From Malassezia furfur (Eukaryota): 50,563 nucleotides of DNA. The notes under the pieces are model-generated. The model ran no database searches. It was not told where the DNA came from and worked only from the letters and a program-made list of their open reading frames with translations. The stretch is taken from the NCBI GenBank assembly GCA_052055015.1, contig JBQJIT010000028.1; one strand, given 5' to 3'. Below are positions 4,201 to 39,114 of the stretch, piece by piece (position 1 is the first letter of the stretch; each line of letters starts with the position of its first letter). The translations under genes and the position numbers were made by a program.

Positions 4201-4279
4201 GCCTCCACCTGCTGATACCACGTGGCGAACGCGCGCGCGCGCGACGCGGTGCGCGGCGCGCGGTTAAAGTCTGCGCACC

Positions 4280-8280: not shown

Positions 8281-8462
8281 GTCGGACGATGCTTGGTGTG
8301 TCCCGGCGACACTGCCCCGGCTGTGGGGGGTGACGGCCGCCAGCATCGTCTTGGAACTGGACGCCTTCCGCTGCCTTCCGCGTTTGGCGGCGCCCCCCAC
8401 CCCACAGCCTCTATGTGGAGGCATAGTTCCCAGGCGCCGCGCGCCTTCGGCTGGGGGGCGCC

Positions 8463-11453: not shown

Positions 11454-11527
11454 GGTGAGTCAGCTCAAAAAAGAGCACACGCCACGTGCGTCGGCGTTTT
11501 CTCCGACGACCCACGGACCACGCTGCG

Positions 11528-13774
11528 ATGGGCGCCAAACACAAGGGCCGCACGTACGCCGACGCGGCGAAACAGCACGCCGACGGCCAGAATGGCAAGA
11601 ACAAGACGACAAAGCAGGACGGCAGCACCAAGCCAATGCAGTCGAATGTGCCCGCCAGTGGCGATGCGCTGCAGACGCCCGCGGACCTCAAGCGCGACCT
11701 GCCGCACGACGCCGCGCACCTCCTGCGCGAGCCGCGGCTCGGCCAGGTCGCCCTGACGCTGCAGGTGATCAGCAGCATCTTGTTCCGTGCGCTCGTGTAT
11801 GTGTTTCTGCGAATCATCCCCGGCCGCGCGGGCTTCTACGCGCTGCACCTGTACGCGGCTTACCTCGTCAGCTGGGTGCTGTACGAGCTCAGCCTGCGTG
11901 CGCGACACCATGAAGCGCCGCGCCCGTGCATCAAAACACTCGCAGCCTCCCTGCTCCTCGGGCGCTCGACGCGCAACCGCCGCGTAAATGTGGCGCAGCT
12001 CGCGATCCACACCCTGTTGCTGGTGCTGTTCCTGGACAGCTACTTTTCGCCGTACATGTTCCCTTCGTACCGGGACGCACACCTGCGCTTTGCGCGTATG
12101 GGCGCGCTGAGCCCAACGAGCGCCAAACTGCACGTCCGCTACCCCCACCCGCTGCCCGTGCTCGACGGGCTATGGGAAAGCGACATCGATTCGGGCGTGC
12201 TGCAGGACGCGGCGCAGCTCGACGCACCCGTGCGCGTCGTGTGGCGCGCCGCACCCGAGGCGGATGCAAGCCCGGCCGAGGCGCTGCGCGCGAGCTCTGC
12301 GCTGCGCAATGCGCGCCGCTGGGAGCGTGGGCCGCTGCTGCACCTCTCGGCAGACACCGACTGGACGGCCACGGCGACGCTCGAGGACCTGTGGCCCGCG
12401 ACGCGCTACGAATGGCGCCTTGCGTTTGTGCACAACAACACGTTTGCGCCACTGCCCGAGCGCCCCGTGTCGTTTGTGACCTGGCCGGACCCGCGGCTGT
12501 CGTCGTACCTCAAAACCAAGCCCACCGAGCGTACGGCACAGGTGCCGCTCGACAACCCGAACCATTTCCGATTCGCCACGACATCGTGCATCAAGCCCGA
12601 CTTCCCGTACAACCCCGCGCAGTTCTGGGGCTGGAACTGGCTCCTGAAGTTGTTCGGCATCGGCGACGAGGTCGGCGGCATCGCCCAGCGCAACCGCATC
12701 CGCGGCTTTGACCTGATGGCCGACCGCCTCCTGCAGAACGGCCGCGCTGGCGTCCGCTTCCTGCTGGAACTGGGCGATTTGATCTACGCGGATGTGCCGC
12801 GGTACGAGGGGCCGTCGATCAGCGCGTACCGCAAGCTCTACCGCAACCTGTTTGCCTCCAAGTCGTTCCAGCGCGTTTTCTCGCGGATCACGGTGATCGG
12901 CATCTACGATGACCACGAGATCGTGAACAACTGGAGCGGTGGGGGATACGGTGCCGAGGACGCATCGCCGGACAAGAACGTCGCGCGCGCCTACGAGCAG
13001 CACCCGTCGCCCCCACCGGGTCTCCCTGCGGGGCTGCAGGCCTGGTCTGAATACATGGGAAACGCGAACCCCGCAGCGGTGCACCAGGGCGAGCACTACT
13101 TCACTTTCAACTATGGCGACACCGCCTTCTTTGTGATGGACACGCGCAAGCACCGTGTGCATCCCAGCTACCCGGGCGAGGAGCGCACCACGCTCGGCGT
13201 CCAGCAGCGTGCGGCACTGCTTACGTGGCTCAGCGAGGTAAACCACACGGCCACGTTCAAGTTTCTTGTGTCGTCGGTGCCGTTCACGTCGCTGTGGGGC
13301 GGGCCGCTCGACTTTGACGGACGCAAGGACGGGTGGTCGGCGTATCCTGAGGAACGCGCGGCGCTCCTCGACGTCCTTCAGTACGTGCCGAACGTCATCA
13401 TCCTGAGTGGCGACCGCCACGAATTTGCCTCGGTGAGCTTCCGTGATTCGGTGGTCGAGTTCAGCACAAGCCCTTTGTCCATGTTCTACATCCCCATCCG
13501 TACGCTCGCTCAGGAACACTCGATCGACCCACCAGGTGAGGAGCTACTGCTGAAATACCTCCCGGATGGCAACCACAAGTGGACTGAATTCGAGGTGGAC
13601 ACGCGCAGCCCTTCGGAGCCAGCCGTGCATGCCACGGTGATGGTCGACGGAAAGGAGGCATGGCGCCTGACCGTCATGGGTCGCCCGATCCGACGGTCGC
13701 AGGGAGCGCTGGGCTCGCTGGCCAAAAGTCTCATGGAACTGCTGGGATTCCGGAACCTGCGTTGGTTCGATTAA
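11528..13774 (+). CDS. PhoD-family (alkaline phosphatase D-like) metallophosphatase with N-terminal membrane segments
   Basis: LGDLIYAD, IYDDHEIVNNW, FFVMDTR, ILSGDRHEF; hydrophobic N-terminal stretches. First ATG at 11528. Confidence 0.88.
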   Translation: MGAKHKGRTYADAAKQHADGQNGKNKTTKQDGSTKPMQSNVPASGDALQTPADLKRDLPHDAAHLLREPRLGQVALTLQVISSILFRALVYVFLRIIPGRAGFYALHLYAAYLVSWVLYELSLRARHHEAPRPCIKTLAASLLLGRSTRNRRVNVAQLAIHTLLLVLFLDSYFSPYMFPSYRDAHLRFARMGALSPTSAKLHVRYPHPLPVLDGLWESDIDSGVLQDAAQLDAPVRVVWRAAPEADASPAEALRASSALRNARRWERGPLLHLSADTDWTATATLEDLWPATRYEWRLAFVHNNTFAPLPERPVSFVTWPDPRLSSYLKTKPTERTAQVPLDNPNHFRFATTSCIKPDFPYNPAQFWGWNWLLKLFGIGDEVGGIAQRNRIRGFDLMADRLLQNGRAGVRFLLELGDLIYADVPRYEGPSISAYRKLYRNLFASKSFQRVFSRITVIGIYDDHEIVNNWSGGGYGAEDASPDKNVARAYEQHPSPPPGLPAGLQAWSEYMGNANPAAVHQGEHYFTFNYGDTAFFVMDTRKHRVHPSYPGEERTTLGVQQRAALLTWLSEVNHTATFKFLVSSVPFTSLWGGPLDFDGRKDGWSAYPEERAALLDVLQYVPNVIILSGDRHEFASVSFRDSVVEFSTSPLSMFYIPIRTLAQEHSIDPPGEELLLKYLPDGNHKWTEFEVDTRSPSEPAVHATVMVDGKEAWRLTVMGRPIRRSQGALGSLAKSLMELLGFRNLRWFD

Positions 13775-13914
13775 TGCAGGCACTTCGGTAGCATCACTTA
13801 ATTGCTCTCCGTTTGCGTGAGACTTCCAAGGTCCATGGCCGAAAGCCTCCGGCGTGCGGAAAACAAAAGAGTTGCGGTCATGTAGTGTCTAACTAGCGGC
13901 CCTGTCAGAATAAA

Positions 13915-14014
13915 TCCCGGCTAGCTCAGTCGGTAGAGCGTCAGACTCTTAAAAGAGTCTCTTCGGTTACGAAGAGTTATCTGAATGTCGTGGGTTCGAG
14001 CCCCACGTTGGGAG
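13915..14014 (+). tRNA. tRNA-Lys(CTT) with 27-nt intron (13952-13978)
   Basis: Acceptor stem TCCCGGC/GTTGGGA; D-arm GCTCAGTCGGTAGAGC; anticodon stem TCAGA/TCTGA around CT-CTT-A; T-loop GGTTCGAGCC; oligo-T Pol III terminator follows. Confidence 0.93.
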
Positions 14015-14133
14015 TTTTTTTTTGCGCCTCCATAGTCCAGCCCAGACTGTTTGTACATTCCCTTTGCATACACAGAAAGCTAATTCTCGTCGCAATTTCA
14101 TTTCTGAAACATCATTTTGCATGGTTTCGTATC

Positions 14134-14838
14134 CTAAATACGGACACTAGCGTTGGCACGGTTTACCGTGCCGATTTTGTGCGCCTCGTCCTTGCGAGAA
14201 AGCACCGAGCTATTACCTTCCAATACCGCAAGCATTTCCACAGCCAGGCGGTGGCTAATCGAGCGGTCTGCCCTCCGACGGCTCGCCTCGATGATCCACA
14301 TAATTGCACGGCGTGTACTCTGACGCGCATTCAAAGGAATAGGGACCTGCATAGTCTTACCGCCTTGTTTGCGCGACTGCATGCGCAGGATGGGCTTCGC
14401 GAGCTCCACGGCTTCATAAACGAGCGGAAGTGGGTCCGAGTTGGTCAGCTTGGCCATATCCGCAAGCATGCCAGCAACAAAGCGTTCGGCAGTCGCCTTT
14501 TTTCCGTCCCGCATCAATAGGTTGACCATGAACTGAAGCAATGGATCTTGCCGCGGAGGCAGCGTGTCCAAAGTATATGTAAACGACGTCTTCGAAACCG
14601 TTTGCTTCGGGTGCGTACCGCCATTGGATAGCGCAACCTTGCTTGCATTCAACTCCGTCTTGTGCACGCCCTCGTTCGCGCTAGCCTCCGACATCTGCCG
14701 CACGACGCTGTTGGTTGAGAACGCCGCCACGCGCGCAGTAGCAGCGAGTCGCGAAACATTCATTACCGGTGCTAGAGGGGAAACAGCCTTCCACATAGCC
14801 GGGATGCGGCGGCCTTGCGCAGCGACGCCCGTCAGCAT
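14134..14838 (-). CDS. RSM7: Mitochondrial ribosomal protein uS7m
   Basis: FMVNLLMRDGKKATAE...VPIPLNARQSTRRAIMWIIEAS...KDEAHKIGTVNRANA; presequence-like N-terminus from ATG 14838. Confidence 0.9.
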   Translation of the reverse strand: MLTGVAAQGRRIPAMWKAVSPLAPVMNVSRLAATARVAAFSTNSVVRQMSEASANEGVHKTELNASKVALSNGGTHPKQTVSKTSFTYTLDTLPPRQDPLLQFMVNLLMRDGKKATAERFVAGMLADMAKLTNSDPLPLVYEAVELAKPILRMQSRKQGGKTMQVPIPLNARQSTRRAIMWIIEASRRRADRSISHRLAVEMLAVLEGNSSVLSRKDEAHKIGTVNRANASVRI

Positions 14839-14921
14839 GGTGCGAAAAGGCGTATGGCGGCGGTAGCAGAGGTGGTCACGTGCCCCTCCTCCACCGCTTC
14901 CTCTCTTCATCGTATTCGGAT

Positions 14922-15520
14922 ATGGCCCCTGACGAGGTTCCTGGTCGGCCGCGTCCGGGCCCACCGCCACCTAGGCCTCCATTTAGCGCGCCTGCAGATG
15001 TGAGATACGACGTTCCACCACCGTGGTCGGGCGTGGGCCAAGAACCGCGGAGTGCACCTGTCCGACCTCCACCTCCTTCAGCTGGCCCTCCGCGCCCGAG
15101 GAACAGCCGCTGGGATGCACCACCATCCAGCGTACCCAATGCCCCGCCACTTGGAAGTGTGGATGGACATTCCCGTCCCATTTCATTGATACCCCGTGCA
15201 CCTCCTCGTGCACCCATTGCCCCTGAACTGATGAAAGAGGTACGTTTACCATACCGGTGCTGACGCAGATTGCGGATATTCGGGCTCAGCGAATGCAGAC
15301 TATTCGGTCTCACTATCTTGTGACGAGCAAGTCGACGTCGGGGAGTGCCACGATTCCACCGCATTTCTCCCTCCAGAGCTCGCTGATGGAGTTGAGCGAC
15401 GCTGAGCTAGAATCGAGCGCGATGCACGCACGAACCGAGTTTCTTGAAGCGTCACTGGTCCGCACTCAGGAAGATGCCTTTGCCTACTCGGCAGTGACAA
15501 GTGCTACACAGCATGCCTAA
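14922..15520 (+). CDS. Small hypothetical protein with Pro-rich N-terminus and helical C-terminus (intron 15240-15268)
   Basis: ORFs 14880..15263 and 15257..15520 join in frame through a 29-nt GTACGT...CTGAC.GCAG intron. Confidence 0.65.
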
Positions 15521-16499
15521 GGATGGTGCCCTTTTCGATACCATGTTTATTATGTCTAGTTTCTAAGCGACCGTGTACTATGCGCTTTTGAGCCTAGCGC
15601 TGTCCTGAAGGGGTCTAGGAATGCGTCTATGTTTCAGTAGACGGTCCTGTCTCGCTTAGCCATTTATCACTCTTGCTCACAAGACCCGCCATGATCGGCG
15701 GTTTCGCTCGACGACGGCACCGGATGACAACGCCGGAGCCTATTTTTATTCACTGAGCCTATCTATCCTATTTGGCACATACTCTAACAGTATGGATGCC
15801 GTATGCACAACCCTTAGCCTTTTTTAACTGCGCCGACTCTGCTATGCTGCCTTGCTACAGATGGGGTAATTTCCTATTTCGACGCCATTCCTGCTTACAC
15901 TCGGTGTCATGAAATGTTATCGAGGGACACGCCCCCCGATCACGTTTTATCAAAAAAAAGCACAGACCGCCCTGATCGCCGTGTGGTCCACTCGGCCCCC
16001 TTCCGGCGGCCCACGGCGCGGTGCGGAGGTAAGCTTGATCTTCCTGGGCGCATTATCACGCCTGTCCCCAAAACTAAATCTGTGGAGATGCTGACCGATC
16101 GCATGTATTTGACAGGCGCGGTACTGAAGATGACATCACATTACATCTGGAGCTATATTTAAGCTACCAATTCCTGAAGCCCATGACATGCAACCAATCA
16201 TAATATGGCCCTCTGCAGAAGATTTGCACGCCTCGATCAATTCAAGGTGTTGCTTGGTAAGCAAATTGCAGTGGGGTCGTACTGGGGCAACGCGACCCGA
16301 GCACTGTCTGAATAGGAAGCATCGTAACATTCTGGTGAGAAACTCTAGGTTTTACGATAATTCGAGGAGCTAGTGCTATTATCTGGTACTAGTTCTGTGT
16401 CACACAACCAGAGTTTAGTCCCGTCCAGGATGTCATTCGTCTTCCCGGATCTGCCTGCGTGGCTCCTGGACGAAGTGCCAGCGTATCACCAATATATAC

Positions 16500-17596
16500 G
16501 TGTCATTAGACCTCGTGGACAGTACTGACACACCCTTACAGTCAGCGCATACGCGATCAACCGTGTTGGACCCGCTCCAAGGAACTAATGCGTATGAGGC
16601 AACTACTGCCTACGATTCTGAAAGCTTAAAAGCGTTGACAAGCTTGGACCGCTTGGTCGCACCCGCGGCCAACCAAGCTCCGTTTCCGTATACCGCCGAT
16701 GCGAATCTGTTGCAAGATCGCTTCATGCACGGCATGGCGTGGACACCTATGGGTATGGGTGGACCCACTCCGTATGCCGTAGCTGGCGATGGCGCGATGG
16801 CGCCGAATATGTCCGTGTCTCCGCTGCTCAGCAATGGGGGCATGTCGTATGGAGCGTCGGTGATGCCAACGGCACCGATGGCTCTCCGCCAGCCGTATGC
16901 GATGGGCTATCCTATACCCATTGCGCCGGTACCCACGCGTATGCCTGGCGTGCCGGATGAAGAGACGCGATTCCCAGCGTCGAACACATTTGTCGATTCG
17001 GCTTCGAACCCGACCTCGGATGCGTCGCGCGCGTCGCTATTGCAAGACTCTCCTTTTCAGCCTGATGACAGCGAGACTATCACGCAGTCTACGTATTCGA
17101 CGCCACAGGCGCTGTGCGACACTAGTGCGGCCTATCCTAGCGCCGTCGGTCTGCGAGGGGCGGCCATGCAGAGCCGGTCGCGCTCCCCGTCTCCCAAGTG
17201 GGCGCCGTTGTCATCACGATGGGATGACTACGGCAGTGCTTCCCTCATGGATCTTTCCAAGCGTGGCGATACTTCTGCCACATCCAAGTCGCGACCGTTT
17301 GTGTGTTCCTATTGTTCGCGGGCGTTCGCTCGCAAGCATGACCTGGAGCGCCATGCGCGCGTTCACGTATGTTCGCCTATGCATACTGACCCCACAGTCG
17401 GGCGATCGTCCATACGTTTGTGCCGAGTGCAAAAAAGGCTTTCCGCGCAGCGATGCGCTGCGGCGCCATATGTATGTCCCTGACTCCCGATGCGTGTACT
17501 AATGGCAGGCGCGTTGAGCACGGAACTCCAAGCCCCGGTGGTCGCGGGACGACGCCTGGTGAGCCGGAGTCTACGCGGCACGACGAAGAGGGATGA
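16500..17596 (+). CDS. C2H2 zinc-finger transcription factor with two fingers (introns 17367-17397 and 17472-17508); 5' end uncertain
   Basis: Spliced product RPFVCSYCSRAFARKHDLERHARVH-SGDRPYVCAECKKGFPRSDALRRHMRVEH. First in-frame ATG is 16725; an upstream exon (ATG 16430) is possible but unresolved. Confidence 0.82.
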
Positions 17597-17664
17597 AGGC
17601 GAGACATCGTCAATTCCTCACCTCTCTTCTGATATGCTGCATTGTACTATAATGATGCCCTTCC

Positions 17665-18876: not shown

Positions 18877-18950
18877 GGTCAGGGATCGAAGGTGGAGGCG
18901 TGGCCGATGCACCCACGTGGCACATCGGCGCAGGGAGGGTTGCACCCGCG

Positions 18951-21284: not shown

Positions 21285-21291
21285 TCTAGTC

Positions 21292-22630: not shown

Positions 22631-22722
22631 GCTGGTCCAAAAAAAAAGAGCCACGTGGGTTTCGGGGCTGTCCGGCCGAGCCACCCCGGGGCCGAGGCGG
22701 CTCCGTTTGTCCATTACCAACC

Positions 22723-23012
22723 ATGTCTGTTTTCCTGACTGCCTCGCGTGCCTCGCTGCGTGCTACCCGCGCTCCGGCCATGCAGCTGGCGCGTCGCAAC
22801 GCGCACTTTGAGAACACGGCGGAGACTGTACGTGGATTCTTGGCTGACCACAGTCGCTCCCCTTCCCGCAGGGCCGCAAGCACGCCAAGGGCCTCGCTGT
22901 GGGCGTCGCTGCCTTCTTCGCCACGGGTCTCGGTGTTCCTTTCCTGATCACCTACTACCAGCTGTACGTATACTCTGTGTGCTCCCTACTCACACCCAGT
23001 CACAAGCCTTGA
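22723..23012 (+). CDS. COX8: Cytochrome c oxidase subunit VIIc (yeast Cox8) precursor (introns 22828-22853 and 22964-22999)
   Basis: Spliced product MSVFLTASRASLRATRAPAMQLARRNAHFENTAETSLPFPQGRKHAKGLAVGVAAFFATGLGVPFLITYYQLHKP: presequence, LPF motif and one TM helix ending in YQL. Confidence 0.8.
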
Positions 23013-23054
23013 TTTAGCTCACTAGCCCACCAATCTTGGAACTTATCTCACCGA

Positions 23055-25531: not shown

Positions 25532-25632
25532 GGCGTGGAGCGAAGCGCGCGTGCGGGTGTTGATATTGATGCTCGGCCGAACTACACGTGCGCCCCCTGC
25601 GCATCGACCCTGCTCGCAGCGGTGGCCGCGAG

Positions 25633-28341
25633 ATGAGCCGCACCGGCGCTCACTCGATGGCGCACGCTCCGCCGGGCGACAAACTCGAGGAGCTGCTGGA
25701 GAAGCAGCCGGAGCCGCGCGCGTCACTCGCGCAGCGGTTGCGCCGCGTTTTCCGGCGTAGCTCGCCGAAACCGCGCGCAAAGCTGGAGGAGGAGGAGGAC
25801 GCGCAGCTCGCCCAGGTGCCGCCACCCACAGAGAAGGCAGAAGTCACGCACACGCCCAAGGCAGTACGCAGACTGCAGTTTGCCAACATCGATGCGGCGC
25901 GGATTCACCCAGAGGACCTACCCCAGGGCTATGATCCAGACGACAACTATCGCGGACTCGATGCCTACGTCAACGCTCGTCGTGCCGAGCGTCGGCGCGT
26001 CCGCCGCGCAGAGCGGCGCATGATGCTCGCGAATCTGCACCGCCGGCATGCGTTCGACGACGAGCTCGACTCGGACGACGCGAGCTCCGACTCGTCGAGC
26101 TCTAGCAGCGAGGGGCCGTTGGGCATTGCACGTCTTCGCGCGCTGTTCGGACACGACTCGGACTCGTCGAGCTCCAGCTCCAGCTCCGATACAAGCAGCT
26201 CGGACTCGGACGATACCGCGTCGGTTGCTTCGAACACAAGCCGCTCCGTCGCCGCTGATACGGACGCAGCAAGCATCGTGAGCCGACGCTCGCGACATGC
26301 GCGGCGCGACGACAGCTCGGTGACCGATTCCCCCGCCTTGTCCACCGCCCTGTCCGTGTTTACGCCGCGCCTCGGTGGCGCTCGCCAGACCCGCAACCGG
26401 CGGCGCGTCCGGCGGCAGCGCAAGCGCGAGCGCAAATACATGCAGAAAGCCAGCCGTAAGGCGCGCCGAAACGCGCGCCGCTTGCGCGAGATTGCAGGCG
26501 GCGTCACCGAATATGCATTGTATACCCCCATGACGCCGGGTCAGGATGCTTGGCTGGCTACCGAGTCATGGAACGCGGTGGTGCACCGCTGGCACGACTA
26601 CTTCTTATACCATCAACAACTCGACGGGCATGCCGGCGATCTAGGCGCACCACACGAAACCGACATGGACAGCTTCGTACTGCCGCCCCCAGCGCTTGAC
26701 ACGCCCGAGGAAGACAATGAGTTTCGTCCGATCAACGAGGACGAGTCGTGGTACGATCAGGAGCGCAACACTGGCCGGCACATGTCGGATGTGCCGCTGA
26801 CGCCTTTCCTCACGGACCATCCGCCTTCGGTGCCGTTCACGCCGCGCACGGTCCGCACAATTGGCCAAACCAATACCCGCACCGTCGACACCATCGCGGA
26901 AGAGGACCTTGGCGAGCTTGGCGAGCCGCTGCTGGGCGACCCGATGCTGGCGTTGCCGTCGAAGACGCCACACTCGGTTGCAGCCCCACCGCCGATCTCG
27001 GAGCTGCTTCCGCCCCTGCTGTCACCGCCGCCGCAGGTCCAGTCGAACCCGTGGTGGCTGGACATTCGATGTCCGACATACAAAGACATGCAGGAGCTTA
27101 GCACCTTTTTCCCGCTGCATCCGCTCACCGTTGAGGATATCTTGAAGCAGGAGCCGCGCGAAAAGGTGGAGACGTTTGACCGGCTTGGCTACTACTTCGT
27201 GGTGATCCGTGCGCTCGACGAGAACTACTTCAAGTTCACGCGCGCCGACCGCAACGAAGGCGAAGTGTCGCTCAAGCAAATCGAGCAGGAACTCGGGCGC
27301 AATCAGCTCTACGGCAACACGCGCTCTGACGCCGAGGCGGTACAGCATGCTGGCCCTACATGGGAGATTACCAAAGACGTACAAAACAGCAAAGAGGGCT
27401 TGGAGGGCCTCAATGCCGGCTCGGTGAGCCTATACCTCGTCGTGTTTGCCCACGGCGTCCTTTCGTTTCATTTTGAAGATGTACAGAAACACCTTGACAA
27501 TGTGCGCTCCCGTCTCGAAAACCACGTTATTCCGGCCGACTACAATGCAGACTGGATCGTGCATGGCATCTACGATTCGGTGGTCGACGCATTCCTTCCC
27601 TACGTGTCATTCTTGCAGGTGCAAGAGGGTATCATCGAGGCTCTCGGCAACGACTTGTCGGTCTCGAACGAGAACGACCGAGCAGGGTCGCGCTCGAACG
27701 ACCAACACGCGGACCTGTATCGCGGCATGCTCAAATACCTCCTGCCTTCCAGCAAGAAGAAAAAGAAAAAGAAGAGCAACTTTACCACGGCCGAAGCGCT
27801 GCGACAGAGCCGGTTCATCTTGCGCCTCTCGGAGACACGCGAGGTGGTTACAGGGCTCTTCCGGCTGCTCACACCTAAGGTCGATGTATTGCGCGGGATG
27901 AAGAAGCGCCTGTATGACTACCGTGGTGCGGCCACCGACGAAAACATGATTCTGATGTACATGGACGACATTTTGGACCACTTGTCGTTGATGGTAACGC
28001 AGCTCCAGGAACGCGACCACGCGCTCGCCCATGTGCACTCGATTTTCCTGGTGAGCTCGCGCACAGTGAACAAGGAGGTACAGCTGCGAATGATCCGCTA
28101 CTTGGTCATCGCGTCCTCGGTCGCGACTGGCACGCTACTGTGCCAGCTGAGTACCAGCTCATTTTCCATGAATATCAAAGTTCCCGCGGATGCACAAGGC
28201 GACTACACCTACAATCATTACTATCCCTTCGGCCTCGTTGTGACTTTCATCGGGCTCGTCCCACTCATCATGTATAGTTATTACCGCGCGGTCGAGAAGA
28301 ACGCTCGGCGCAAGTACGAGCGCGAAAACGCGCGCAGGTAG
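25633..28341 (+). CDS. CorA-family Mg2+/divalent cation transporter (Alr1/Mnr2-like)
   Basis: WWLDIRCPT...LHPLTVEDILKQEPREKVETF..GYYFV; ADWIVHGIYDSVVDAF; two C-terminal TM helices with FSMNIKVP; long low-complexity N-terminus. Confidence 0.88.
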   Translation: MSRTGAHSMAHAPPGDKLEELLEKQPEPRASLAQRLRRVFRRSSPKPRAKLEEEEDAQLAQVPPPTEKAEVTHTPKAVRRLQFANIDAARIHPEDLPQGYDPDDNYRGLDAYVNARRAERRRVRRAERRMMLANLHRRHAFDDELDSDDASSDSSSSSSEGPLGIARLRALFGHDSDSSSSSSSSDTSSSDSDDTASVASNTSRSVAADTDAASIVSRRSRHARRDDSSVTDSPALSTALSVFTPRLGGARQTRNRRRVRRQRKRERKYMQKASRKARRNARRLREIAGGVTEYALYTPMTPGQDAWLATESWNAVVHRWHDYFLYHQQLDGHAGDLGAPHETDMDSFVLPPPALDTPEEDNEFRPINEDESWYDQERNTGRHMSDVPLTPFLTDHPPSVPFTPRTVRTIGQTNTRTVDTIAEEDLGELGEPLLGDPMLALPSKTPHSVAAPPPISELLPPLLSPPPQVQSNPWWLDIRCPTYKDMQELSTFFPLHPLTVEDILKQEPREKVETFDRLGYYFVVIRALDENYFKFTRADRNEGEVSLKQIEQELGRNQLYGNTRSDAEAVQHAGPTWEITKDVQNSKEGLEGLNAGSVSLYLVVFAHGVLSFHFEDVQKHLDNVRSRLENHVIPADYNADWIVHGIYDSVVDAFLPYVSFLQVQEGIIEALGNDLSVSNENDRAGSRSNDQHADLYRGMLKYLLPSSKKKKKKKSNFTTAEALRQSRFILRLSETREVVTGLFRLLTPKVDVLRGMKKRLYDYRGAATDENMILMYMDDILDHLSLMVTQLQERDHALAHVHSIFLVSSRTVNKEVQLRMIRYLVIASSVATGTLLCQLSTSSFSMNIKVPADAQGDYTYNHYYPFGLVVTFIGLVPLIMYSYYRAVEKNARRKYERENARR

Positions 28342-28394
28342 CCCCGTAGCCCTACGCGTAGCATGACTAAGCACGGCCGAACGCGCCGCTTTCC

Positions 28395-28410
28395 GCGCGA
28401 CGCGTCGCGT
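28395..28410. promoter_or_regulatory. MCB-like (ACGCGT/CGCG) cell-cycle element upstream of PCNA
   Basis: GCGCGACGCGTCGCGT about 35 bp upstream of the POL30 ATG; ACGCGT at 28400-28405. Confidence 0.5.
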
Positions 28411-28438
28411 CGAGGTTCCTTGTGCATTTGCCCTCACC

Positions 28439-29450: not shown

Positions 29451-29725
29451 ATTTGGCGAATGCCATAGGTTTTTACTTTGAGACAAGACAAATGCTTTCG
29501 TCACGACCAAATACGTGTGTAGCGGTACCGTACGGGATGGATGAGGTACGAGGCGATGCATTCGCACGATTTGTAGTGTAAATGTACGAAATCATTTCTA
29601 TTCTGTTCGGCGAGCGTATGCTCGGTGCAAGACTATACTATCCCAAAATGCGTGAAGTCATGTCAAGATTGCCATCGTGTAACGGATAGCAAAGAGGAAT
29701 ATTCATCCGAAATTTCGGTGCTTAA

Positions 29726-30727
29726 TCACTCAATAAAATTCCCATAGTCCCGGTTAAGAGTGTCAAGCTTCAATGTTGGTGCCTCGATCAAGGTCGTCTG
29801 GCTGTGATTCATCCAATCTTCGCCGTCATTGTAGAGAGAAACATATGCATCTTCGCGGTCGGGATTGTACTTCCAAGAGAAATCTTTAGGCAGGTATTGC
29901 ATCGGGTTCACCACGTTCATAATCGCAACAGCGACAAATACAAATGCGCCATCAAACACGTAAAGGCACCATTCAGTATTATTAATCACTCCGTTCCAAC
30001 CAACACCCATTTCGATTACACGGAAAATAGACCGCCGAATAATGAGCTGACTGGAGAAGAACACGGCCCACAGCAGTACTCGGTACCTGTCGTAATGGGG
30101 CGGGGGGTTTTTCCGCACACGGTGCCAGAACGAAAGGAAAACAAAGTCAAACAAGAGATAGCCAGCCAGCTGTACCGAAACACCGGCCACAACGATGTGG
30201 GAGCCACGTTGGGAGTCCTAACGTTAGCCAAAAAAAAGGTACTCACCTCTGCATTGTTGGCGGAGCCTGCCGAGCCACCTCCAATGCCCTGGACCACAAG
30301 CGATACAAGATCGATAGTGACAAAGATCGGGACAAGCATGACGGGACGAAGGACCGAGTACTTGCGCGGAAACATGGTCGCAATGCGGCCGACCACCGTG
30401 AAATGGATCTAGATGAGTGATTGTCGATGTACTGCTGCAAAGAGACAGGGGGTAATGATAAGAAGACACTCCATAGCCACAAACGTGTTGCGGATATACG
30501 GATTAATGTGTCCTTGAATGCGCCTGTGTTAGTTGGGTAACATACAGAGCATAGCCTGCCAATTCTGCGAGGGCGCCAATGAGAAAGACAGACATCCACC
30601 ATTGCCGGTAGTACAGTAGCTGTACAAAATGGGCCGCCGAAGTCAGGCTAAAGGCTACAACCAGGACGATGGCCGCAGCCAAGTTGGGAATGTATCCATA
30701 CAAGGAGAAATCGGCGCGATCTTGCAT
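29726..30727 (-). CDS. RTA1/Rsb1-like multi-TM membrane protein (introns 30524-30545, 30409-30432, 30218-30246)
   Basis: YGYIPNLAAAI; ELAGYALR; IFVTIDLVSLVVQGIGGG; RSIFRVIEM...EWCLYVFDG. Three introns restore a continuous frame. Confidence 0.87.
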
Positions 30728-30897
30728 TGGCCGTGGACTGGTCGTTCGTATATGAGACCACTTACGATAGCGACGTGAAGAGACCTTTTCGCCGAGGCAC
30801 AATCAACTCCTCGAGCCCAATCTCTGCCACATGGCGTATTTGGCGCTCCAACTAATTAGAACATTACGTCGCTTGTCTCTCACTGCCTCCCGCGGCC

Positions 30898-30903
30898 CAC
30901 GTG
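30898..30903. promoter_or_regulatory. CACGTG E-box at the midpoint of the RTA1/MET5 divergent promoter (representative of a recurrent motif)
   Basis: Palindrome centred at 30900.5; the midpoint between the two ATGs is 30901.5. The same motif occurs in six other divergent gaps. Confidence 0.6.
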
Positions 30904-31075
30904 ATTATGGCGTGCTTTTGCGTAAGCAAAGGGGCCTGCACAATGCGGCGTACGCTGTTGGCCGCCGCAAAATGTGCACGCAATAGAGCGTGGGTCACCC
31001 CGGTGTAGCTGTTGGAGCGTTTATAAAATCGAACGACTAGCTTCTTCTCACTACGGTCGTCGACGGTTTGTGAAG

Positions 31076-34000
31076 ATGAGTGTGTCTTCCGTTTCGGCAG
31101 TGTGGCACATTGCATACCACGCGGCCCCTGCACTCGTCACCGTTGGCCCGGACAATGCCTATGTTGCGTTGGAACGTGCCGAGAAACCGGTGTGGGAGCA
31201 GCTGAGTGTCGCGGCCGAGGTTGGCTCGGTCGTGCAAAATATGGTGCGTGCGACGCCCGAGCGCCCTCTCGCGGTGCTGCTTGAGGCCTCCCCGTCGGTT
31301 CTTTTGCGTCTCGTGCCCCACCTCCCGGCGCTTGCCAAGACACCGGTGGTGTTCCATATCGCAACGCGTGGTGACCATGCCGACGTCCTGCTGCTGCGCC
31401 AGAGCGGCATGACGATGTTCTATGCCAGCAACGCTGCGCAGGCGCAGGATTATGCACTTGCAGCGCACGAGCTTGCCGCGCGCACTTCGACAGGCGTGAT
31501 CCACTTTTTCGACGCGAGCGACGCCAACGTCTCGCTTCTGAGTAGCGATGCGCTGAGCGCCGTCCCGCGCAGTGCCGTTGAGGCACCATGCGATGGTTCG
31601 GCGATCGATGCGGCCCTCGCCGAGGCGTCCAAGTTCGTGAAGCACGATGTGCGTGCGTATCAAGTATGGAATGCGTCGGCGTCGGCGACGTCGTGCGCCG
31701 TGGCGCTAGGCCCTGTTGAGGCGCTTGCCAAGGCGGCTACGTCGGTCCCGATTGTGTCTGTGCATCTCGTGCGCCCGCTACGTGCAGAGCAGCTTGTGCA
31801 ACAGATCCCTGTTACGGTGGAGCGCCTTGCAGTCCTGGAACAGACGGGCAAGCGCACGACGCGCCTGGCGCCGATGTTCATCGATGTCGCGAGTGCTTTC
31901 CAGCACGTTACGGACCGCCAGGTGCCCGCGACGTTTGTGAGTGGCCAGCTCGGCCACGTTGACGCTTCCTCGGCCTCGACCGCAGCGCAGACCCTCGAAA
32001 AGGCGCTGGCGGACAAGACGAACGCGTTTGTGCTGGGCGGTGCACGTCTGGCATCCGCATCGTCGGCGACGCAGGCCGTGGCGCGCCGCGAGCTCGTGCA
32101 TGAGCGTGGCTACGACCAGATGTTGCACCAGATCTTCAAGGAACGTCTCTCTGTCGTCAACCCCCCGAGCGACGACAGCGACCCGGCGGCGAGCAGCCCC
32201 GAGTTTGCATTCGGCAAGGTGCTGTCGCAGATGCGCCGCGAGGACGAGCTCGTATCGCTTGCGCGCTCGGCGATCGATGGTGGCAAGCTGCCCCAGGACG
32301 TGGTGGATGCGCTGCAAGAATGGCTCCGCGTGCGTGCGGACCCGACCAAGGTCCGTGCTGCGAGCGCTGCGGTGCGCGCCGCACTGGGCGGCGCCAAGGT
32401 TTCGGGTGAGAACGAGGCACTCCGCGCGCTCGAGTCCCACCTTGAGCCGCCGAGCCGCTGGATCATCGGCAACGATGCGTGGGCCTACGATGCGGGTATG
32501 GGCGGCGTGCACCATGTGATTGCGTCGCAGCGCAACGTCAACATGCTCGTTTTCGACACGGTCCCCTACTCGGGTCGCGAGAGTGTCCCCGTGCACCAGC
32601 GCAAGAAGGACATTGGTCTGTATGCGATGAACTACGGTAACACCTATGTCGCCAGCACCGCGCTCTACTCGGACTACACACAGGTGCTCCACGCGCTGAT
32701 GGAGGCGGACCGCTTTGATGGCCCTTCGATCGTACTGGCGTACGTGCCCTACCACCGCGCCGATTCGCCGGCGCTCGACGTGCTGCGCGAGACGAAACTT
32801 GCTGTGGACTCGGGCTACTGGCCGCTCTACCGTTGGGACCCGAGCGCCGAGGCGCGCAACGCCGACGTGTTCCGCCTGGACAGTGTGCGTGTGCGCGAGC
32901 AGCTCAAGAGCTTCCTGGACCGACACAACCACTTTAGCCTGCTGGCGAACGCACAACCCGAGCTGCCGTACGACCTGGCCGTATCGCAGGGCACGGCGCT
33001 GCGTGCGCACCAGCAGCGCAAGGCGAAGGAGGCGTACGACAGCCTGCTCGGCTCGCTTGAGGGACCGCCGCTGCTTGTGCTGTTTGCCTCGGACGGCGGC
33101 GGTGCCGAGAAGGCGGCGCGTCGCCTCGCGACGCGCGCCAAGCTGCGTGGCCTCGGTGTGCGCGTGCTTGCAATGGACGACTTCCCGCTGGATGACCTCG
33201 CCTCGGAGAAGAACGTGGTGTTTGTCACCTCGACGGCCGGGCAGGGCGAGCCGCCACAAAATGGGCGGCTGACGTTCAAGGCGCTCGCCAAGTTGCCGGG
33301 CAGTAGCTTCGACGAGGAGACGCGCTTTGGTGTATTCGGCATGGGCGACAGCCACTATTGGCCGCGCCCCGAGGATGCCGGCTTCTACAACAAGCCGGCC
33401 AAGGACCTCGACAAGCGCCTTGCACAGCTCGGTGCGCAGCGCATGGTGCCCCTCGGTCTCGGCGATGACCAGGACGCCGATGGGTGGCAGACCGGCTACA
33501 AGGCTTGGGAGCCGCAGCTCTGGAAGGCGCTCGGGGTGGACCATGTCGAGGTGAAGGAGGCCGAGCCGGAGCCGATCACCAACGAGAACATCAAGATCGC
33601 CAGCAACTACCTGCGCGGCACCATTGTTGAGGGTCTACGCGATACGTCGACGGGCGCGATTGCAGAGTCCGACACGCAGCTCACCAAGTTCCACGGGACG
33701 TACATGCAGTACGACCGCGACACGGTCGAGGAGCGCAAGGCTGCCGGTCTCGAGCCTGCGTACGGCTTCATGATCCGCGTGCGCATGCCCGGTGGTGTGT
33801 GTACGCCGGAACAGTGGCTGCAGCTCGACAGCGTCACGGAGGATTACGGCGGCATCAAGTCGCTCAAGATCACCACGCGTCAGACCGTGCAATACCACAT
33901 GATCCTCAAAAAGGACCTGAAGAGTGCGATGCAGTCGATTAACAAGAGCATGCTCGACACGATCGCCGCATGTGGTGACGTGAACCGCAACGTGATGTGC

Positions 34001-35332
34001 GCGCCGAACCCCAAGCTCAGCGAAGTACACGAACAGACGTACGACTTTGCCAAGAAGCTCTCCGAGTATCTGCTCCCGCGCATGAACGCTTACCATGAGA
34101 TCTGGCTCGACAAAGGTACCGATTCGTCGAGCAAGTTGCTCGTCGGCGGTGCGGTACAGGACTACGAGCCACTCTACGGCCCGTACTACCTCCCGCGCAA
34201 GTTCAAGATTGCGATCGCCGTTCCGCCCCGCAATGACGTCGACGTGTTTGCGAACGACATTGGCCTCATCGCAATTGCCGACCCGCAGAAGAAGACGCTG
34301 CTCGGCTTCAACATCGCGGTCGGCGGTGGTATGGGCGTGACCCACTCGATGAAGGCGACCTACCCGCGCCTCGGCAGCGTGATTGGCTTCTTGCGCCTCG
34401 ACCAGGTGTGCGAGGTATGCCGCGAGGTGATGCTTATCCAACGCGACACGGGCAACCGTCAGAACCGGAAGCAGGCACGCCTGAAGTACACCATCGACAA
34501 GTACTGGGGTGGCGCCGACAACTTCCGCGCCGAGCTCGAGCGCCGCCTGGGATACAAGCTTGAGGACGCCCGGCCCTATAACTTCACCACCAACACGGAC
34601 GACTACGGCTGGGAGCAAGACTTCCGCGGCAAGTGGCACTGCACGCTCTGGCTCGAGAACGGCCGTGTGATCGACGAGCCGGGTAGCCCATTCCGCACGG
34701 GCCTGCGCGAATTGGCCAAGTTCCACAAGGGCACCTTCCGTCTCACCCCGAACCAACACATCATTGTGTCGGACATCGACGAGGCGGACAAGCCGCGCGT
34801 CGAGGCGCACCTGCGCGAGTACAAGATGGACAACTGGAACCAGAGCGGGCTGCGCCTCAGCGCCAGTGCCTGTGTCGCCTTCCCGACTTGTGGATTGGCG
34901 ATGGCCGAGTCGGAGCGCTATATCTTCAAGCTGGTTGACAAAGTGCAGCACATCTACCTGGCCAACGGTCTACGCGACGACGAGATCACTTTCCGCATGA
35001 CTGGCTGTCCGAATGGATGCGCTCGTCCGTGGATCGCCGAGATTGCCTTTGTCGGCAAGGCCCCCGGCACCTACGTCATGCTTTTGGGCGGCGCGCGCAA
35101 CGGCACGCGCCTCAACAAGATCTTCCGCGACAATGTGCAAGAGAAGGAGATTCTGGAGATCCTCGGCATCCTGATTCCGCGCTATGCCCGCGAGCGGCTT
35201 GACGGCGAGCCGTTCGGCGACTGGGTCATTCGCGCTGGGATCATTGCCGAGACGACGTCTGGCGCGGCATTCTATGACAACGTCGACACTGAGTCGCCCT
35301 TGGTGCCTGCGGATGTGCCGCAGGCTGCGTAG
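31076..35332 (+). CDS. MET5: Sulfite reductase (NADPH) beta subunit (PFOR-like, flavodoxin and siroheme/4Fe-4S domains)
   Basis: LAVDSGYWPLYRW; flavodoxin VTSTAGQGEPPQNG and GMGDSHYW; TKFHGTYMQYDRD; ACGDVNRN; SACVAFPTCGLAMAESER; MTGCPNGCARP. Confidence 0.95.
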   Translation: MSVSSVSAVWHIAYHAAPALVTVGPDNAYVALERAEKPVWEQLSVAAEVGSVVQNMVRATPERPLAVLLEASPSVLLRLVPHLPALAKTPVVFHIATRGDHADVLLLRQSGMTMFYASNAAQAQDYALAAHELAARTSTGVIHFFDASDANVSLLSSDALSAVPRSAVEAPCDGSAIDAALAEASKFVKHDVRAYQVWNASASATSCAVALGPVEALAKAATSVPIVSVHLVRPLRAEQLVQQIPVTVERLAVLEQTGKRTTRLAPMFIDVASAFQHVTDRQVPATFVSGQLGHVDASSASTAAQTLEKALADKTNAFVLGGARLASASSATQAVARRELVHERGYDQMLHQIFKERLSVVNPPSDDSDPAASSPEFAFGKVLSQMRREDELVSLARSAIDGGKLPQDVVDALQEWLRVRADPTKVRAASAAVRAALGGAKVSGENEALRALESHLEPPSRWIIGNDAWAYDAGMGGVHHVIASQRNVNMLVFDTVPYSGRESVPVHQRKKDIGLYAMNYGNTYVASTALYSDYTQVLHALMEADRFDGPSIVLAYVPYHRADSPALDVLRETKLAVDSGYWPLYRWDPSAEARNADVFRLDSVRVREQLKSFLDRHNHFSLLANAQPELPYDLAVSQGTALRAHQQRKAKEAYDSLLGSLEGPPLLVLFASDGGGAEKAARRLATRAKLRGLGVRVLAMDDFPLDDLASEKNVVFVTSTAGQGEPPQNGRLTFKALAKLPGSSFDEETRFGVFGMGDSHYWPRPEDAGFYNKPAKDLDKRLAQLGAQRMVPLGLGDDQDADGWQTGYKAWEPQLWKALGVDHVEVKEAEPEPITNENIKIASNYLRGTIVEGLRDTSTGAIAESDTQLTKFHGTYMQYDRDTVEERKAAGLEPAYGFMIRVRMPGGVCTPEQWLQLDSVTEDYGGIKSLKITTRQTVQYHMILKKDLKSAMQSINKSMLDTIAACGDVNRNVMCAPNPKLSEVHEQTYDFAKKLSEYLLPRMNAYHEIWLDKGTDSSSKLLVGGAVQDYEPLYGPYYLPRKFKIAIAVPPRNDVDVFANDIGLIAIADPQKKTLLGFNIAVGGGMGVTHSMKATYPRLGSVIGFLRLDQVCEVCREVMLIQRDTGNRQNRKQARLKYTIDKYWGGADNFRAELERRLGYKLEDARPYNFTTNTDDYGWEQDFRGKWHCTLWLENGRVIDEPGSPFRTGLRELAKFHKGTFRLTPNQHIIVSDIDEADKPRVEAHLREYKMDNWNQSGLRLSASACVAFPTCGLAMAESERYIFKLVDKVQHIYLANGLRDDEITFRMTGCPNGCARPWIAEIAFVGKAPGTYVMLLGGARNGTRLNKIFRDNVQEKEILEILGILIPRYARERLDGEPFGDWVIRAGIIAETTSGAAFYDNVDTESPLVPADVPQAA

Positions 35333-36020
35333 GCACTACATTCTAGCCAAACAATCTCGTCACACACCCTCCCAACGTGCGCACGTGCTCCGTGTCGAGC
35401 GGGGCCGATGCGCCGTGCAACTCCGCAATCTCGCCTCCACGTGGGAAAAGGGACCATCGCGCCTCGCTGCTTTCCCAGAATGATTGGCGAGCGTCTCTGC
35501 GCCCGTGACGATCCTCCACAATGGCGGACTCAGCATCGGTCCAACGACGTTCCTGGTCTGGCCCGTCTGACCGCAGCGGAGTATCACGTGATGAGATGCC
35601 ACGAATGAGAGGCGGGCCGTTTGTTTTTTGCCTTGGAACACGCATGCCTATGCGTGACGTATCACTTTTCTGATGTAGGTCTGACCAATTCGCGCACAGC
35701 ACCAAGTGAAAAACCTCGCGAGGCCGGCTCAGGTCATACCCAACCGCTCAGGTTGGCTATGTCATTTGTTCAAACACAGGCACAGCCGGTTAGGGACATA
35801 CCGCGCGTATACAGGTGCAGATCACTTTTTGTAGTCCAAGGGTAGATCGTCGGTGGATCGAGCGTATCAAAGGATCGGCCTTGCGTGTGCATACATGTGG
35901 CGGATTTCCGTGGCTGCCGGGACACCCTTGTTTGGCTTGGTCGACAGACATAGTTTAAAAAGGCGACTACTGTAGCCGTCGCGGGAACGGTCCCGCTGCC
36001 TTCACATTACTCCGATTGTA

Positions 36021-36845
36021 ATGTTCGCAGCCAAGTCTCTGTTCGCTTTCGTCGCGGCCGCCCTCGCTGTCGTGGGCGTGTCTGCTGACAAGCCTTCCTT
36101 CAGCATTGACGACCTCCCCGACACCTGGGAGGATGGCCAGATTGGTACCAACCAGTGCAAGAAGTGGGGTGCCTCGAACCAAAACTCGTACTGCCAGAAC
36201 GTGTTCATCAACTCGGTGAAGGACTTCTGTCTCTTTGCTCCCCCGTATGGCCAGCACACCGTCGGCGCTTTTGAGGAGAAGATGGTGTCGTACTGTCTTA
36301 AGGAGGGCTACGGTACCCGCCTAATCCCTGACGGCACGCTCAAGAGCGCCTACTTCATCAAGACCGACTCGTTCGTCCAGGTTACGGGTGAGGGTGACTT
36401 CACCAAGATGCACATTCGCAACGCCGACGAAGGTGGTGAGCTCGACCCCCACGGTGCGACGGGCATGGGTAACCCGCCGGGTGGTCTCGTGTTCACGCGC
36501 TCGCAGAAGGGTAACGAAGGCAACTGGGTTCAACTTAAGGAGTGGAACAACTTCATGAGCGCTACCGAGTACTCGATTCGTGGCTGCTGGGGCGACAACG
36601 CTGCTCAGTACTGCCCGCACATCTATGACGAGATGGGCTCCTACTTCAACGAGCCTGGTCGCTACGAGGCTGGCAGCTTCGAGAACTGTGATGCCGACCC
36701 GGGTCACTTCCCTGGTGTGTACCACGGCTCGACCTTCTGGCAGGGCCAGGACCACACGCCGGGTCCGCACAAGCCTGGCTCGAGCTCGAACTGCCACAGC
36801 TACAGCTCGGTCAGCAACGGCTACGCGGTCAAGCCCCTCTACTAA
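36021..36845 (+). CDS. Secreted Cys-rich protein of the MP88 immunoreactive mannoprotein / macrophage-activating glycoprotein family
   Basis: Signal peptide MFAAKSLFAFVAAALAVVGVSA; GTNQC, NSVKDFCLFAPP, GYGTRLIPDGT, GGELDPHGATGMGNPPGGLVF, CPHIYDEMG; strongly biased codon use. Confidence 0.8.
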   Translation: MFAAKSLFAFVAAALAVVGVSADKPSFSIDDLPDTWEDGQIGTNQCKKWGASNQNSYCQNVFINSVKDFCLFAPPYGQHTVGAFEEKMVSYCLKEGYGTRLIPDGTLKSAYFIKTDSFVQVTGEGDFTKMHIRNADEGGELDPHGATGMGNPPGGLVFTRSQKGNEGNWVQLKEWNNFMSATEYSIRGCWGDNAAQYCPHIYDEMGSYFNEPGRYEAGSFENCDADPGHFPGVYHGSTFWQGQDHTPGPHKPGSSSNCHSYSSVSNGYAVKPLY

Positions 36846-37261
36846 ACTACGACAACGATCGCATCGCACTAAAGCTGCTGACGCATGTTGGATACCCATG
36901 AATTCTCTCTTTTACTTTGTGCATTTGGCGCATTTCTTATATCTTGTTGAAAGACATTGGATCTTCCTTTTTTTATATATATGTACGAATCCACCATTGC
37001 GCAGTATACAGAGGATGTGCGTTCGAATGTTCGTTGCTGGTGCACGTTCGTGCTTGTGACACACGTGCTGAGCGTTTCAGCGTGTGTTGTCCGATGCGGT
37101 GTTATCATCGACAACACGCGGGCCAATCAGTGTGTGCATTTCGTTCAGATTAGGGGGCCGTGTACACAAGATGGATTAATTCCAGGTCGATAAAGTGATC
37201 TGTGTACTTTAGAAAGTCTCGTACCTCTCGTCTTCTCACAAGAATCCACTCCTTCATCGCG

Positions 37262-38711
37262 ATGGCTTCTCAATCAGGCCAGACTTTGGGTGCCCAGGAC
37301 AATGCGGTGCTGAGCCAGATCTTGGCTGGCATCACGGATCTTCGTCGCGATGTACGTTTTGTTTGTTGGGGCTAATAAACAGGTGCATCGTGTGACGGAA
37401 CGGCTTGACATGCTCGAGATGCAGCAGCCGCCGACGCCGACGCTGCCTATGTTCTCGCCGAGCATTTCGCCGTCGAAGCGCAATACGTACTTCGCGCACC
37501 AGACATCCCTCAACAGCTGGCATCCGGAGCGGAATCGTCCCGCACCGCCATCTTCCACCCCCGCAGCGCAGATTGCGCCGCCCTCCCCGGTGTCGCTAAA
37601 GGCCACGGATCCGAACCTTGGGCTCTGGGCCGTTGTACCAGCCGGTGGTGCGGGCACGCGTCTCTGGCCCCTGAGTCGTGAGAGCTGCCCCAAGTTTTTG
37701 CTCGACCTCACCGGTCGCGGTCGCACCCTGATCCAAAACACGTGGGACCGCCTGTTGCCGCTTTCGGGTGTGGAGCGTTTTATGGTGGTTACGGGCAATG
37801 CACACGTCGATGCCGTCTCGGAACAGCTCCCGCAGCTTGTCCCCGGCAACGTGTTTGCGGAGCCCTCGCCGAAAGAGTCGATGGCTGCCATCGGTCTGGC
37901 CGCGGCGGTGCTCATGCGCCGTGACCCCAACGCGGTGCTCGGCTCGTTCGCGGCGGACCACATCGTGTCCGGCCGTGATGCGTTTGAGTCTGCAGTGCGG
38001 GAGGCCGTGGCCGTCGCCAAGGAAGGCTTCCTCGTGACGATTGGCATTGCGCCTTCGTACCCCTCCACTGGGTTTGGCTACATCAAGCTTGGCGAGAGTT
38101 TGGAACTGAAGGATGCACCCAACGCGCACAAAGTGCTCGAGTTCAAGGAAAAGCCCGATGCACGCACCGCCAGCGCCTACCTGAGTACCGGTGAGTACCG
38201 CTGGAACGGTGGTATGTTTGTGGTCAAGGCCAAAACGCTCATGTCGCTCCTCGAGGCTAACGTGCCGGAGCTCTACGCGGGTCTCAACACGATTGCCGAT
38301 GCTTGGGATACGCCGAGCCGCCAGCTGGTGCTGAACGAACAGTGGCCGCAGCTGCCCAAAATCGCCATCGATCACGCGGTAGCTGAACCAGCATCGCGGG
38401 TTGGCAAGGTCGCTGTGGTCCCCGCAACCTTCGGTTGGGACGATGTCGGTGACTTTGCCAGTCTCTCGGACTTGTTGCCCGCCGAGAAGAACGAGGCGCG
38501 CGTGCTCGGCGACCCATCGCTGGTGATCACTGAGGGCCAGGTCGGTGGCATTGTGGTGCCAGCATCCGGCCGCCAGATCGCGTGCCTAGGTATGGACGAC
38601 GTCGTGGTCGTCGACACACCCGATGCGTTACTCATCACGACGCGTGCGCGCAGCCAGGATGTGAAAAAGATCGTGGCCAAGTGCAAAAAAGCACACCCAG
38701 AGCTTTGTTAG
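37262..38711 (+). CDS. Mannose-1-phosphate guanylyltransferase, bacterial ManC type (intron 37352-37382)
   Basis: VVPAGGAGTRLWPLSR..PKFLLDL; AEPSPKES; FAADH; STGFGYI; FKEKPD; WNGGMF; WDDVGDF; VVVDTPDALL. A 90-nt first exon is in frame. Confidence 0.9.
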
Positions 38712-38778
38712 AATGGATAGCGTTTAGGGGTGTCGTGCTATCTATATTTGGAAAATACAGACGTTAGGTATCAAACTG

Positions 38779-39058
38779 TCATCCTTGCCGCTTTGGTTAG
38801 TCGTATCGCACATACCTGCTTGTGCTTCGGGTTCTTGTTGCAGATCACGTATAGTCGCCCCTTGCGGCGGACAATGGCGCAGTGGTTGCACTTCCTCTTG
38901 ACCGACGCGCGTACCTTCATCCCGCGTGTCATTTGAGGAACCACGGGCTGCGGCGTGAGAATACGTGGCATCATCGCCGGTGAAGGCATCGCCAGCGCCG
39001 GGAAGGGCCGCGCGGCGACTACTTGCCGGATGAGCGGAACACTGGCGCGGAGAAGCAT
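38779..39058 (-). CDS. RTC6: Mitochondrial ribosomal protein bL36m (intron 38791-38815)
   Basis: Presequence followed by [40 protein letters not shown] stop; splicing restores the canonical KQRQG end. Confidence 0.93.
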
Positions 39059-39114
39059 CGTGGTCGCTCCCAAGAAGACGATCGTCACGTGCCTGGAAAA
39101 GTTGCTCTCTGGCC

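Follow-up and report, generated by a model that had tools for sequence, protein, structure and literature searches.

The stretch of DNA considered here (the window) comprises 50,563 nucleotides (nt) of contig JBQJIT010000028.1 from the Malassezia furfur assembly GCA_052055015.1. Our subject is the hexamer CACGTG (the box), which lies between the start codons of seven of the nine head-to-head gene pairs of the window. A sequence-only reading had proposed that the box is a general core element at the centre of minimal bidirectional promoters. We found that CACGTG is a promoter element at about a third of promoters, those of tandem genes included. The TFIIB encoded in the window shares 99% identity with a Malassezia furfur protein. 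The assembly is 13.7 Mb long and contains a second copy of the window region at 86-88% identity. Its size and the second copy fit a hybrid of the M. furfur type, since the described hybrids have genomes of ~14 Mb and a parental divergence of ~10% (PMC9040865). The two subgenomes were used as a built-in conservation control.

CACGTG in the gaps of the window

The coordinates of the seven boxes and the lengths of the seven gaps, with CAT and ATG at the gap ends, were all correct in the sequence-only reading, and its gene names agree with Pfam families where Pfam covers them. Our gene model found both start codons in six of the seven pairs. In the 74-nt HIS7/PhoD gap, the box (11483..11488) stands 29 and 39 nt from the ATGs and is kept in the other subgenome and in related lineage B. 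The box between RSM7 and open reading frame (ORF) 14922 (14877..14882; gap of 83 nt, arms of 38 and 39 nt) is T-flanked and is kept in the other subgenome and in three related lineages. In the SUA7/NUP84 gap, also of 74 nt, the box (18914..18919; 37 and 31 nt) is kept in the other subgenome, and a box was present at all eight orthologous loci. RPF1 (Brix family) and the small spliced ORF opposite it are separated by 92 nt. Their box (22652..22657) adjoins an A-tract and is off-centre, with arms of 21 and 65 nt; it is kept in the other subgenome and in three related lineages, where it is near-central. The name COX8 for the small ORF obtained no confirmation from Pfam. The box of the 101-nt gap between HOF1 (SH3) and CorA (25585..25590; 53 and 42 nt) is kept in the other subgenome. 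It is accompanied on the HOF1 side, at a distance of 4 nt, by the palindrome TCGGCCGA (~25573-25580), and both are retained in three related lineages. The longest gap, RTA1/MET5 with 348 nt, carries its box at 30898..30903 (ATCACGTG on the minus strand; the other subgenome retains it), and the shortest, RTC6 (L36)/URB2 with 56 nt, carries a T-flanked box at 39086..39091, 27 and 23 nt from the ATGs. In this order the boxes lie 5, 0.5, 3, 22, 5.5, 1 and 2 nt from the midpoint, i.e., six are within about 6 nt of it and the RPF1/COX8 box is about 22 nt away. The two divergent pairs without a box are 8346/8463 and the pair beyond position 44979.

There are 21 CACGTG in the whole window against 27.5 expected. 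There is no window-wide excess; the signal is the position of the box. Seven of the 21 lie in divergent gaps, six at tandem junctions and eight in coding DNA; counted by junction, a box is present in 7/9 divergent, 4/7 tandem and 0/9 convergent ones. The six tandem-junction boxes had been overlooked. One (1134..1139) overlaps the TGA stop codon of ATP10, 40 nt upstream of the UTP6 ATG. Another (4219..4224) lies between UTP6 and the gene of the primase large subunit, 18 nt past the stop codon, with CTCCAC at 4203. Three (35382, 35438 and 35585; 35382..35590) share the tandem gap between MET5 and ORF 36021, and the last one (37062..37067) is upstream of a nucleotidyl-transferase gene with its ATG at 37262.

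Some neighbouring features deserve mention. ORF 14922 (14922..15520, plus strand), the partner of RSM7, is spliced and proline-rich and belongs to no Pfam family. The gene model did not call it; its frame is kept in the other subgenome, where the changes are mostly synonymous, and its 3' exon was found in related loci. In the convergent gap between PhoD and RSM7 there is a 118-nt element (13906-14023) that recurs on at least four other contigs with 97-98% identity. Synteny with the other subgenome ends at RTA1 (29726-30727 in the window, near 19300-21400 of contig C35), and RTA1 has paralogues elsewhere with 67% identity. In one related lineage (L106:9927-10001) there is apparently a first intron in SUA7, with another CACGTG inside it.

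Enrichment, conservation and position of the box

A held-out sample consisted of 80 pieces, each of 10 kb, taken from the largest contigs (~0.8 Mb, ~6% of the assembly). The window was excluded from it, second copies were masked, and CACGTG was hidden from the gene model; this hiding leaves the held-out result unchanged. Gene starts were taken from a home-made, self-trained exon-intron model. Gaps beside very short gene calls were removed before counting, and 356 held-out gaps remained. The introns predicted in the window and the sample are very short (median 25 nt; the model has a floor of 22 nt), and their branch site usually lies at a distance of 9 nt from the 3' end.

The enrichment extends beyond the window: CACGTG is the top hexamer of the held-out promoter gaps, being present in 88 of 203 against 16.4 in dinucleotide shuffles. 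Boxes were found in 57/117 divergent, 43/126 (34%) tandem and 3/113 convergent gaps. Among gaps of 50-600 nt the corresponding counts were 52/93, 32/87 and 3/43, with shuffled means of 8.9, 7.2 and 3.0. In divergent gaps of 50-120 nt the box occurred in 22 of 38, and seven control palindromes occurred in 0-4 of 38. An annotation-free search of the whole assembly (both subgenomes) for a box between head-to-head Kozak-like ATGs returned 117 cases for CACGTG and 37 for GTGCAC, a control that is 1.7-fold commoner overall. In coding DNA the box is depleted to about half of the expectation (114 vs 216). Because a third of tandem gaps carry it, the box marks promoters generally, and the idea that it is special to bidirectional promoters was not borne out. 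The sequence of the box is strict: none of the nine one-mismatch variants was clearly enriched in box-less promoters, the highest being CACGTC (21 vs 13) and CACGCG (29 vs 22). TATA boxes are rare (17/180 gaps), and no significant association with the box was seen (5/84 gaps with it and 12/96 without it, P 0.2). Nor did the GC content of third codon positions, used as an expression proxy, set box genes significantly apart (P 0.09).

Promoter boxes are conserved. Where homeologous DNA could be aligned, each of the 11 held-out promoter boxes is retained between the subgenomes, compared with 107/257 hexamers of the same letters and 2/7 coding boxes. The same is true of the six window boxes comparable with the other subgenome, i.e., all divergent-gap boxes except that of RTC6/URB2. 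Eight syntenic loci from three lineages were recovered by a metagenome search; their TFIIB is 78-80% identical, and we infer that these lineages are other Malassezia. The gene model is weak on these genomes, and start codons there were assigned by eye. The box is present in all 13 gap-lineage pairs covered, where the gaps are 109-433 nt long and most flanks have changed.

Boxes mostly lie 10-70 nt from start codons. Of the 26 boxes in divergent gaps of up to 120 nt, eight have both arms no longer than 45 nt. In tandem gaps the first box is often close to the upstream stop codon, at a distance of up to 19 nt in 18/43 gaps, and this proximity exceeds the expectation (13/32 against 6-7, P 0.001-0.005). 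A box within 20 nt past the gene end was seen at 19/126 tandem ends vs 1/226 convergent ends. Occurring near tandem stops and almost absent after convergent ends, it appears to be the outer edge of a promoter rather than a terminator.

The central placement proposed for the box holds in the window (6/7) and is weak genome-wide beyond what short gaps force. Among held-out gaps of 40-150 nt with a single box, the midpoint is no more than 6.5 nt away for 11/28 boxes, significantly more than the 4.8 that a uniform null gives. If the 12 nt beside each ATG are excluded, the expectation rises to 7.7 and significance is lost (P 0.10). In held-out gaps of 150-600 nt only 1/15 is centred. The 6/7 of the window thus exceeds the held-out rate. 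Dividing short gaps genome-wide into classes of equal size gave 52 centred boxes against 35 and 41 off-centre ones (mean 38), with P 0.05 raw and 0.14 after halving for the two subgenomes. Longer gaps gave 13 centred against 17 and 17, and restriction to strong start contexts brought no significant gain (P 0.25). In the relatives the box remains near the middle as both arms lengthen (mean offset 0.067 of the gap, rho 0.80), in 13 orthologous gaps that were selected for centring, are non-independent and have start codons assigned by eye.

A second motif of the held-out promoters is CCTCCAC/GTGGAGG, found in 86/203 gaps against 18 expected, in either orientation and mostly 0-30 nt upstream of the ATG. 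It is kept between subgenomes in 12/14 cases. In the window CTCCAC/GTGGAG occurs at 4203, 8415, 14889 and 18892; the second of these (GTGGAG, 8415..8420, plus strand) is in the box-less divergent gap PIP5K/ORF 8463. The CreA/Mig1 consensus is SYGGRG, to which the motif is no simple fit, as GTGGAG by far outnumbers the other variants. It does resemble the Fusarium motif M8, CTCCnC (PMC2853525). In tandem gaps the box and CTCCAC tend to alternate (6 gaps with both, 26 and 22 with one only, P 0.057), and in divergent gaps they co-occur freely (23/93). Further enriched promoter words are TCGGCCGA (11 vs 0.9), TGACTAA/TGACTCA, GCCCGAT and A-tracts. At gene ends, the stop codons are mostly TAG (182/352), often in an RTAG context, and RTAG and TATA/TGTA words are concentrated in the first 20-30 nt past the stop. 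A signal for 3' processing that has merged with the stop codon may underlie this pattern.

Binding factor and use of the box by one or two genes

The palindromic form of the box is not evidence of two-way design, being simply the site of a dimer of the basic helix-loop-helix (bHLH) type. A bHLH search of the assembly gave ten matches, of which seven loci were examined and the other three were treated as subgenome copies. The assembly encodes a clear Cbf1 orthologue: its best PDB match is yeast Cbf1 (E 3e-17), and the basic region and the NIEKWTL segment are conserved. One locus has what we take to be the SREBP-type tyrosine, and four further loci have what is presumably the H-E-R basic signature. 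Two of these four match Max/Myc best, one of them weakly. One of the seven loci was unreadable in a single frame. The Cbf1 consensus is RTCACGTG. Among 218 half-sites RT flanks occur 57 times against ~22 expected and GC flanks 42 times against ~19, both at about 2-2.5 times the expectation, and C flanks are commoner. As a 5' T flank is reported to exclude Pho4 (PMC8419926), this split suggests that one or two factors may be involved. The genes behind tandem boxes are mixed in function, in agreement with the sequence-only reading: 27 of 38 have Pfam families, judged by eye to cover the proteasome, tubulin, the kinetochore, the exocyst, mitochondria and translation; a single SPX protein is among them.

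We consider it likely that CACGTG is the site of a putative constitutive bHLH dimer, most probably the Cbf1 orthologue, acting as a general regulatory factor. Such a dimer would occupy the box at about a third of promoters, those of mixed housekeeping genes, with a second, Max/Pho4-like factor perhaps acting on C-flanked sites. By analogy with budding yeasts (PMC2897762), the bound dimer would keep a short nucleosome-free patch, and transcription would start nearby. Genome compaction may then have trimmed dispensable DNA up to the box, which would explain why tandem boxes are frequently found right beside the stop codon upstream. In head-to-head genes two promoter edges would coincide in a short gap, and a single box would therefore look central. 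One box is probably shared by both genes, as the counts suggest: double boxes occur in 12 divergent gaps against 28 expected from two independent promoters (P 0.007-0.03), box-positive divergent gaps exceed the expectation for one promoter (P 0.005-0.011), and a shared-site model fits.

Several observations weigh against this explanation. At least five of the encoded bHLH proteins carry the H-E-R signature and ~70% of half-sites are not T-flanked, so that Cbf1 may not be the sole or main binder. A box is lacking from half of the divergent gaps, and the coding depletion of CACGTG is only the fifth among 51 palindromes. The test of sharing is indirect, depends on 12 double-box gaps and ignores the smaller room in short gaps; moreover, the divergent presence rate is 58% against 56% predicted from two independent promoters, which fit equally well. 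The start codons rest on a home-made gene model. Finally, two related lineages have a tandem box ahead of PCNA that is missing here, from which it follows that sites turn over. The box-less CorA-PCNA tandem gap of the window (28341-28438) has retained the words TGACTAA and CGGCCGA.

The strongest alternative is that the two promoters are independent, the box serving one gene and CTCCAC or another motif the other one. We regard this as possible, though clearly less probable than a general factor. The evidence on whether one site drives both genes is divided: box counts hint at sharing, and the co-occurrence with CTCCAC in divergent gaps speaks for separate promoters, since in tandem gaps the two motifs tend to alternate. 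Independence also agrees with the presence rate just given, with the 76 off-centre boxes against 52 centred ones in short gaps, and with arm lengths that are uncorrelated in the held-out set (rho 0.16). However, it does not predict the deficit of double boxes (12 vs 28, P 0.007) or the joint lengthening of the arms around a near-central box in the relatives, and a dimer 25-50 nt from both ATGs would hardly spare one side.

Two further proposals are rather unlikely, to a similar degree. In one the box is a roadblock or insulator, where a factor bound in a tandem gap terminates the transcript coming from upstream and protects the promoter that follows. The proximity of the box to tandem stops and the ability of yeast general regulatory factors to block RNA polymerase II (PMC5052057) are in line with it. 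However, a roadblock would be expected after any gene end, which the single case among 226 convergent ends contradicts; yeast Cbf1 causes only a subtle polymerase pause (PMC5052057); and compaction alone predicts the same box position. In the other the dimer positions the start site: the Cbf1 site would replace the TATA box, load the polymerase both ways and end the upstream tandem transcript, and CTCCAC would mark an alternative promoter class. Two conventional initiation complexes cannot be accommodated next to a dimer in gaps of 56-100 nt, and few gaps have a TATA box, which would be understandable if one Cbf1 site loaded the polymerase in both directions. In Aspergillus nidulans the CACGTG peak is ~70 nt upstream of the transcription start (PMC4046813), whereas here the box is mostly 10-70 nt from the ATG and must be much closer to start sites or overlap them. 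The eight boxes with two arms of at most 45 nt are in gaps too short for the Aspergillus geometry, which gives a modest probability to direct positioning of initiation by the factor. If so, two or three short words would make up a minimal promoter code of a eukaryote.

It is more doubtful still that the box is a symmetric core element specific to minimal bidirectional promoters and centred in them. The per-gap rate is indeed higher in divergent than in tandem gaps (52/93 vs 32/87, P 0.011), and there is some centring, both over the uniform null in short held-out gaps and in the longer orthologous ones. The box is, however, present at a third of tandem promoters, and its centring becomes non-significant once the ATG sides are excluded, is not seen above 150 nt and is weak genome-wide. 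Of the general core element first proposed, the general promoter element stands, the bidirectional specificity does not, and a preferred centre is not supported beyond the effect of short gaps. Equally doubtful is a mark of an inducible regulon (phosphate via Pho4, sulfur via Cbf1-Met4, SREBP or ribosomal genes). In its favour, the seven pairs include MET5 and PhoD, the assembly has an SREBP-type gene and further bHLH genes, and in Fusarium and Aspergillus niger the motif is enriched at ribosomal genes (PMC2853525, PMC8419926), but a box at about a third of promoters, in genes of many functions, is not confined to one pathway. A compositional or annotation artefact can practically be dismissed: the window was chosen for its striking look and the gene calls are home-made, but the signal survives hexamer hiding, the annotation-free search and dinucleotide shuffles, and the sites are conserved.

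Comparison with known promoter elements

General, conserved CACGTG promoter motifs have been described before in Aspergillus and Fusarium, and in budding yeasts that precede the whole-genome duplication (pre-WGD yeasts) Cbf1 is known to serve as a general regulatory factor. The features unusual here are the prevalence of the box, its tight spacing to ATGs and its frequent abutment on the upstream stop. Our literature search, which did not extend to subscription papers and supplements, found no account of a CACGTG promoter element for Malassezia. CACGTG, CTCCAC, TGACTMA, TCGGCCGA and A-tracts form a first promoter vocabulary for this genus that can serve annotation as well as compact parts for two-way expression. 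The gaps also show how far promoters can shrink, with start codons 56-100 nt apart and one conserved site between them. They are natural minimal test cases of whether one general-factor site can feed two genes and of how initiation complexes fit.

In A. nidulans CACGTG is among the three top over-represented promoter motifs and is conserved between species; its authors are undecided whether it is modulatory or core, and the accessible text contains no analysis of bidirectional promoters (PMC4046813). The Fusarium counterpart, M2, is the second most conserved promoter motif (PMC2853525), and the A. niger E-box has been footprinted and is active in a minimal reporter (PMC8419926). Both accompany the basic leucine zipper motif TGACTCA, as the box does here. 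They are enriched at ribosomal genes and attributed to Pho4 or unnamed bHLH proteins, while the present box is found at a third of promoters with mixed functions. The G-box bidirectional promoters of Arabidopsis (PMC4222868) likewise have CACGTG between divergent genes; unlike our case, they are described as multi-copy, abscisic acid-responsive and motif-selected, not as a general element. In Saccharomyces cerevisiae a general regulatory factor is bound between transcription units in a similar arrangement, but there Cbf1 blocks only weakly, and sites close to the transcription start are reported to restrain rather than drive divergent transcription (PMC5052057, PMC9481977).

The nearest precedent is provided by the pre-WGD yeasts, where nucleosome maps identified Cbf1 as a general regulatory factor (Tsankov 2010, PMC2897762). 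The hexamer, the Cbf1 orthologue and the broad use in promoters are alike. Those yeasts are ascomycetes and were studied by nucleosome mapping, whereas our evidence is sequence-based and comes from a basidiomycete with far shorter gaps. The present work extends the general promoter element of the Cbf1/E-box type, known from ascomycetes, to a yeast of the basidiomycetes.

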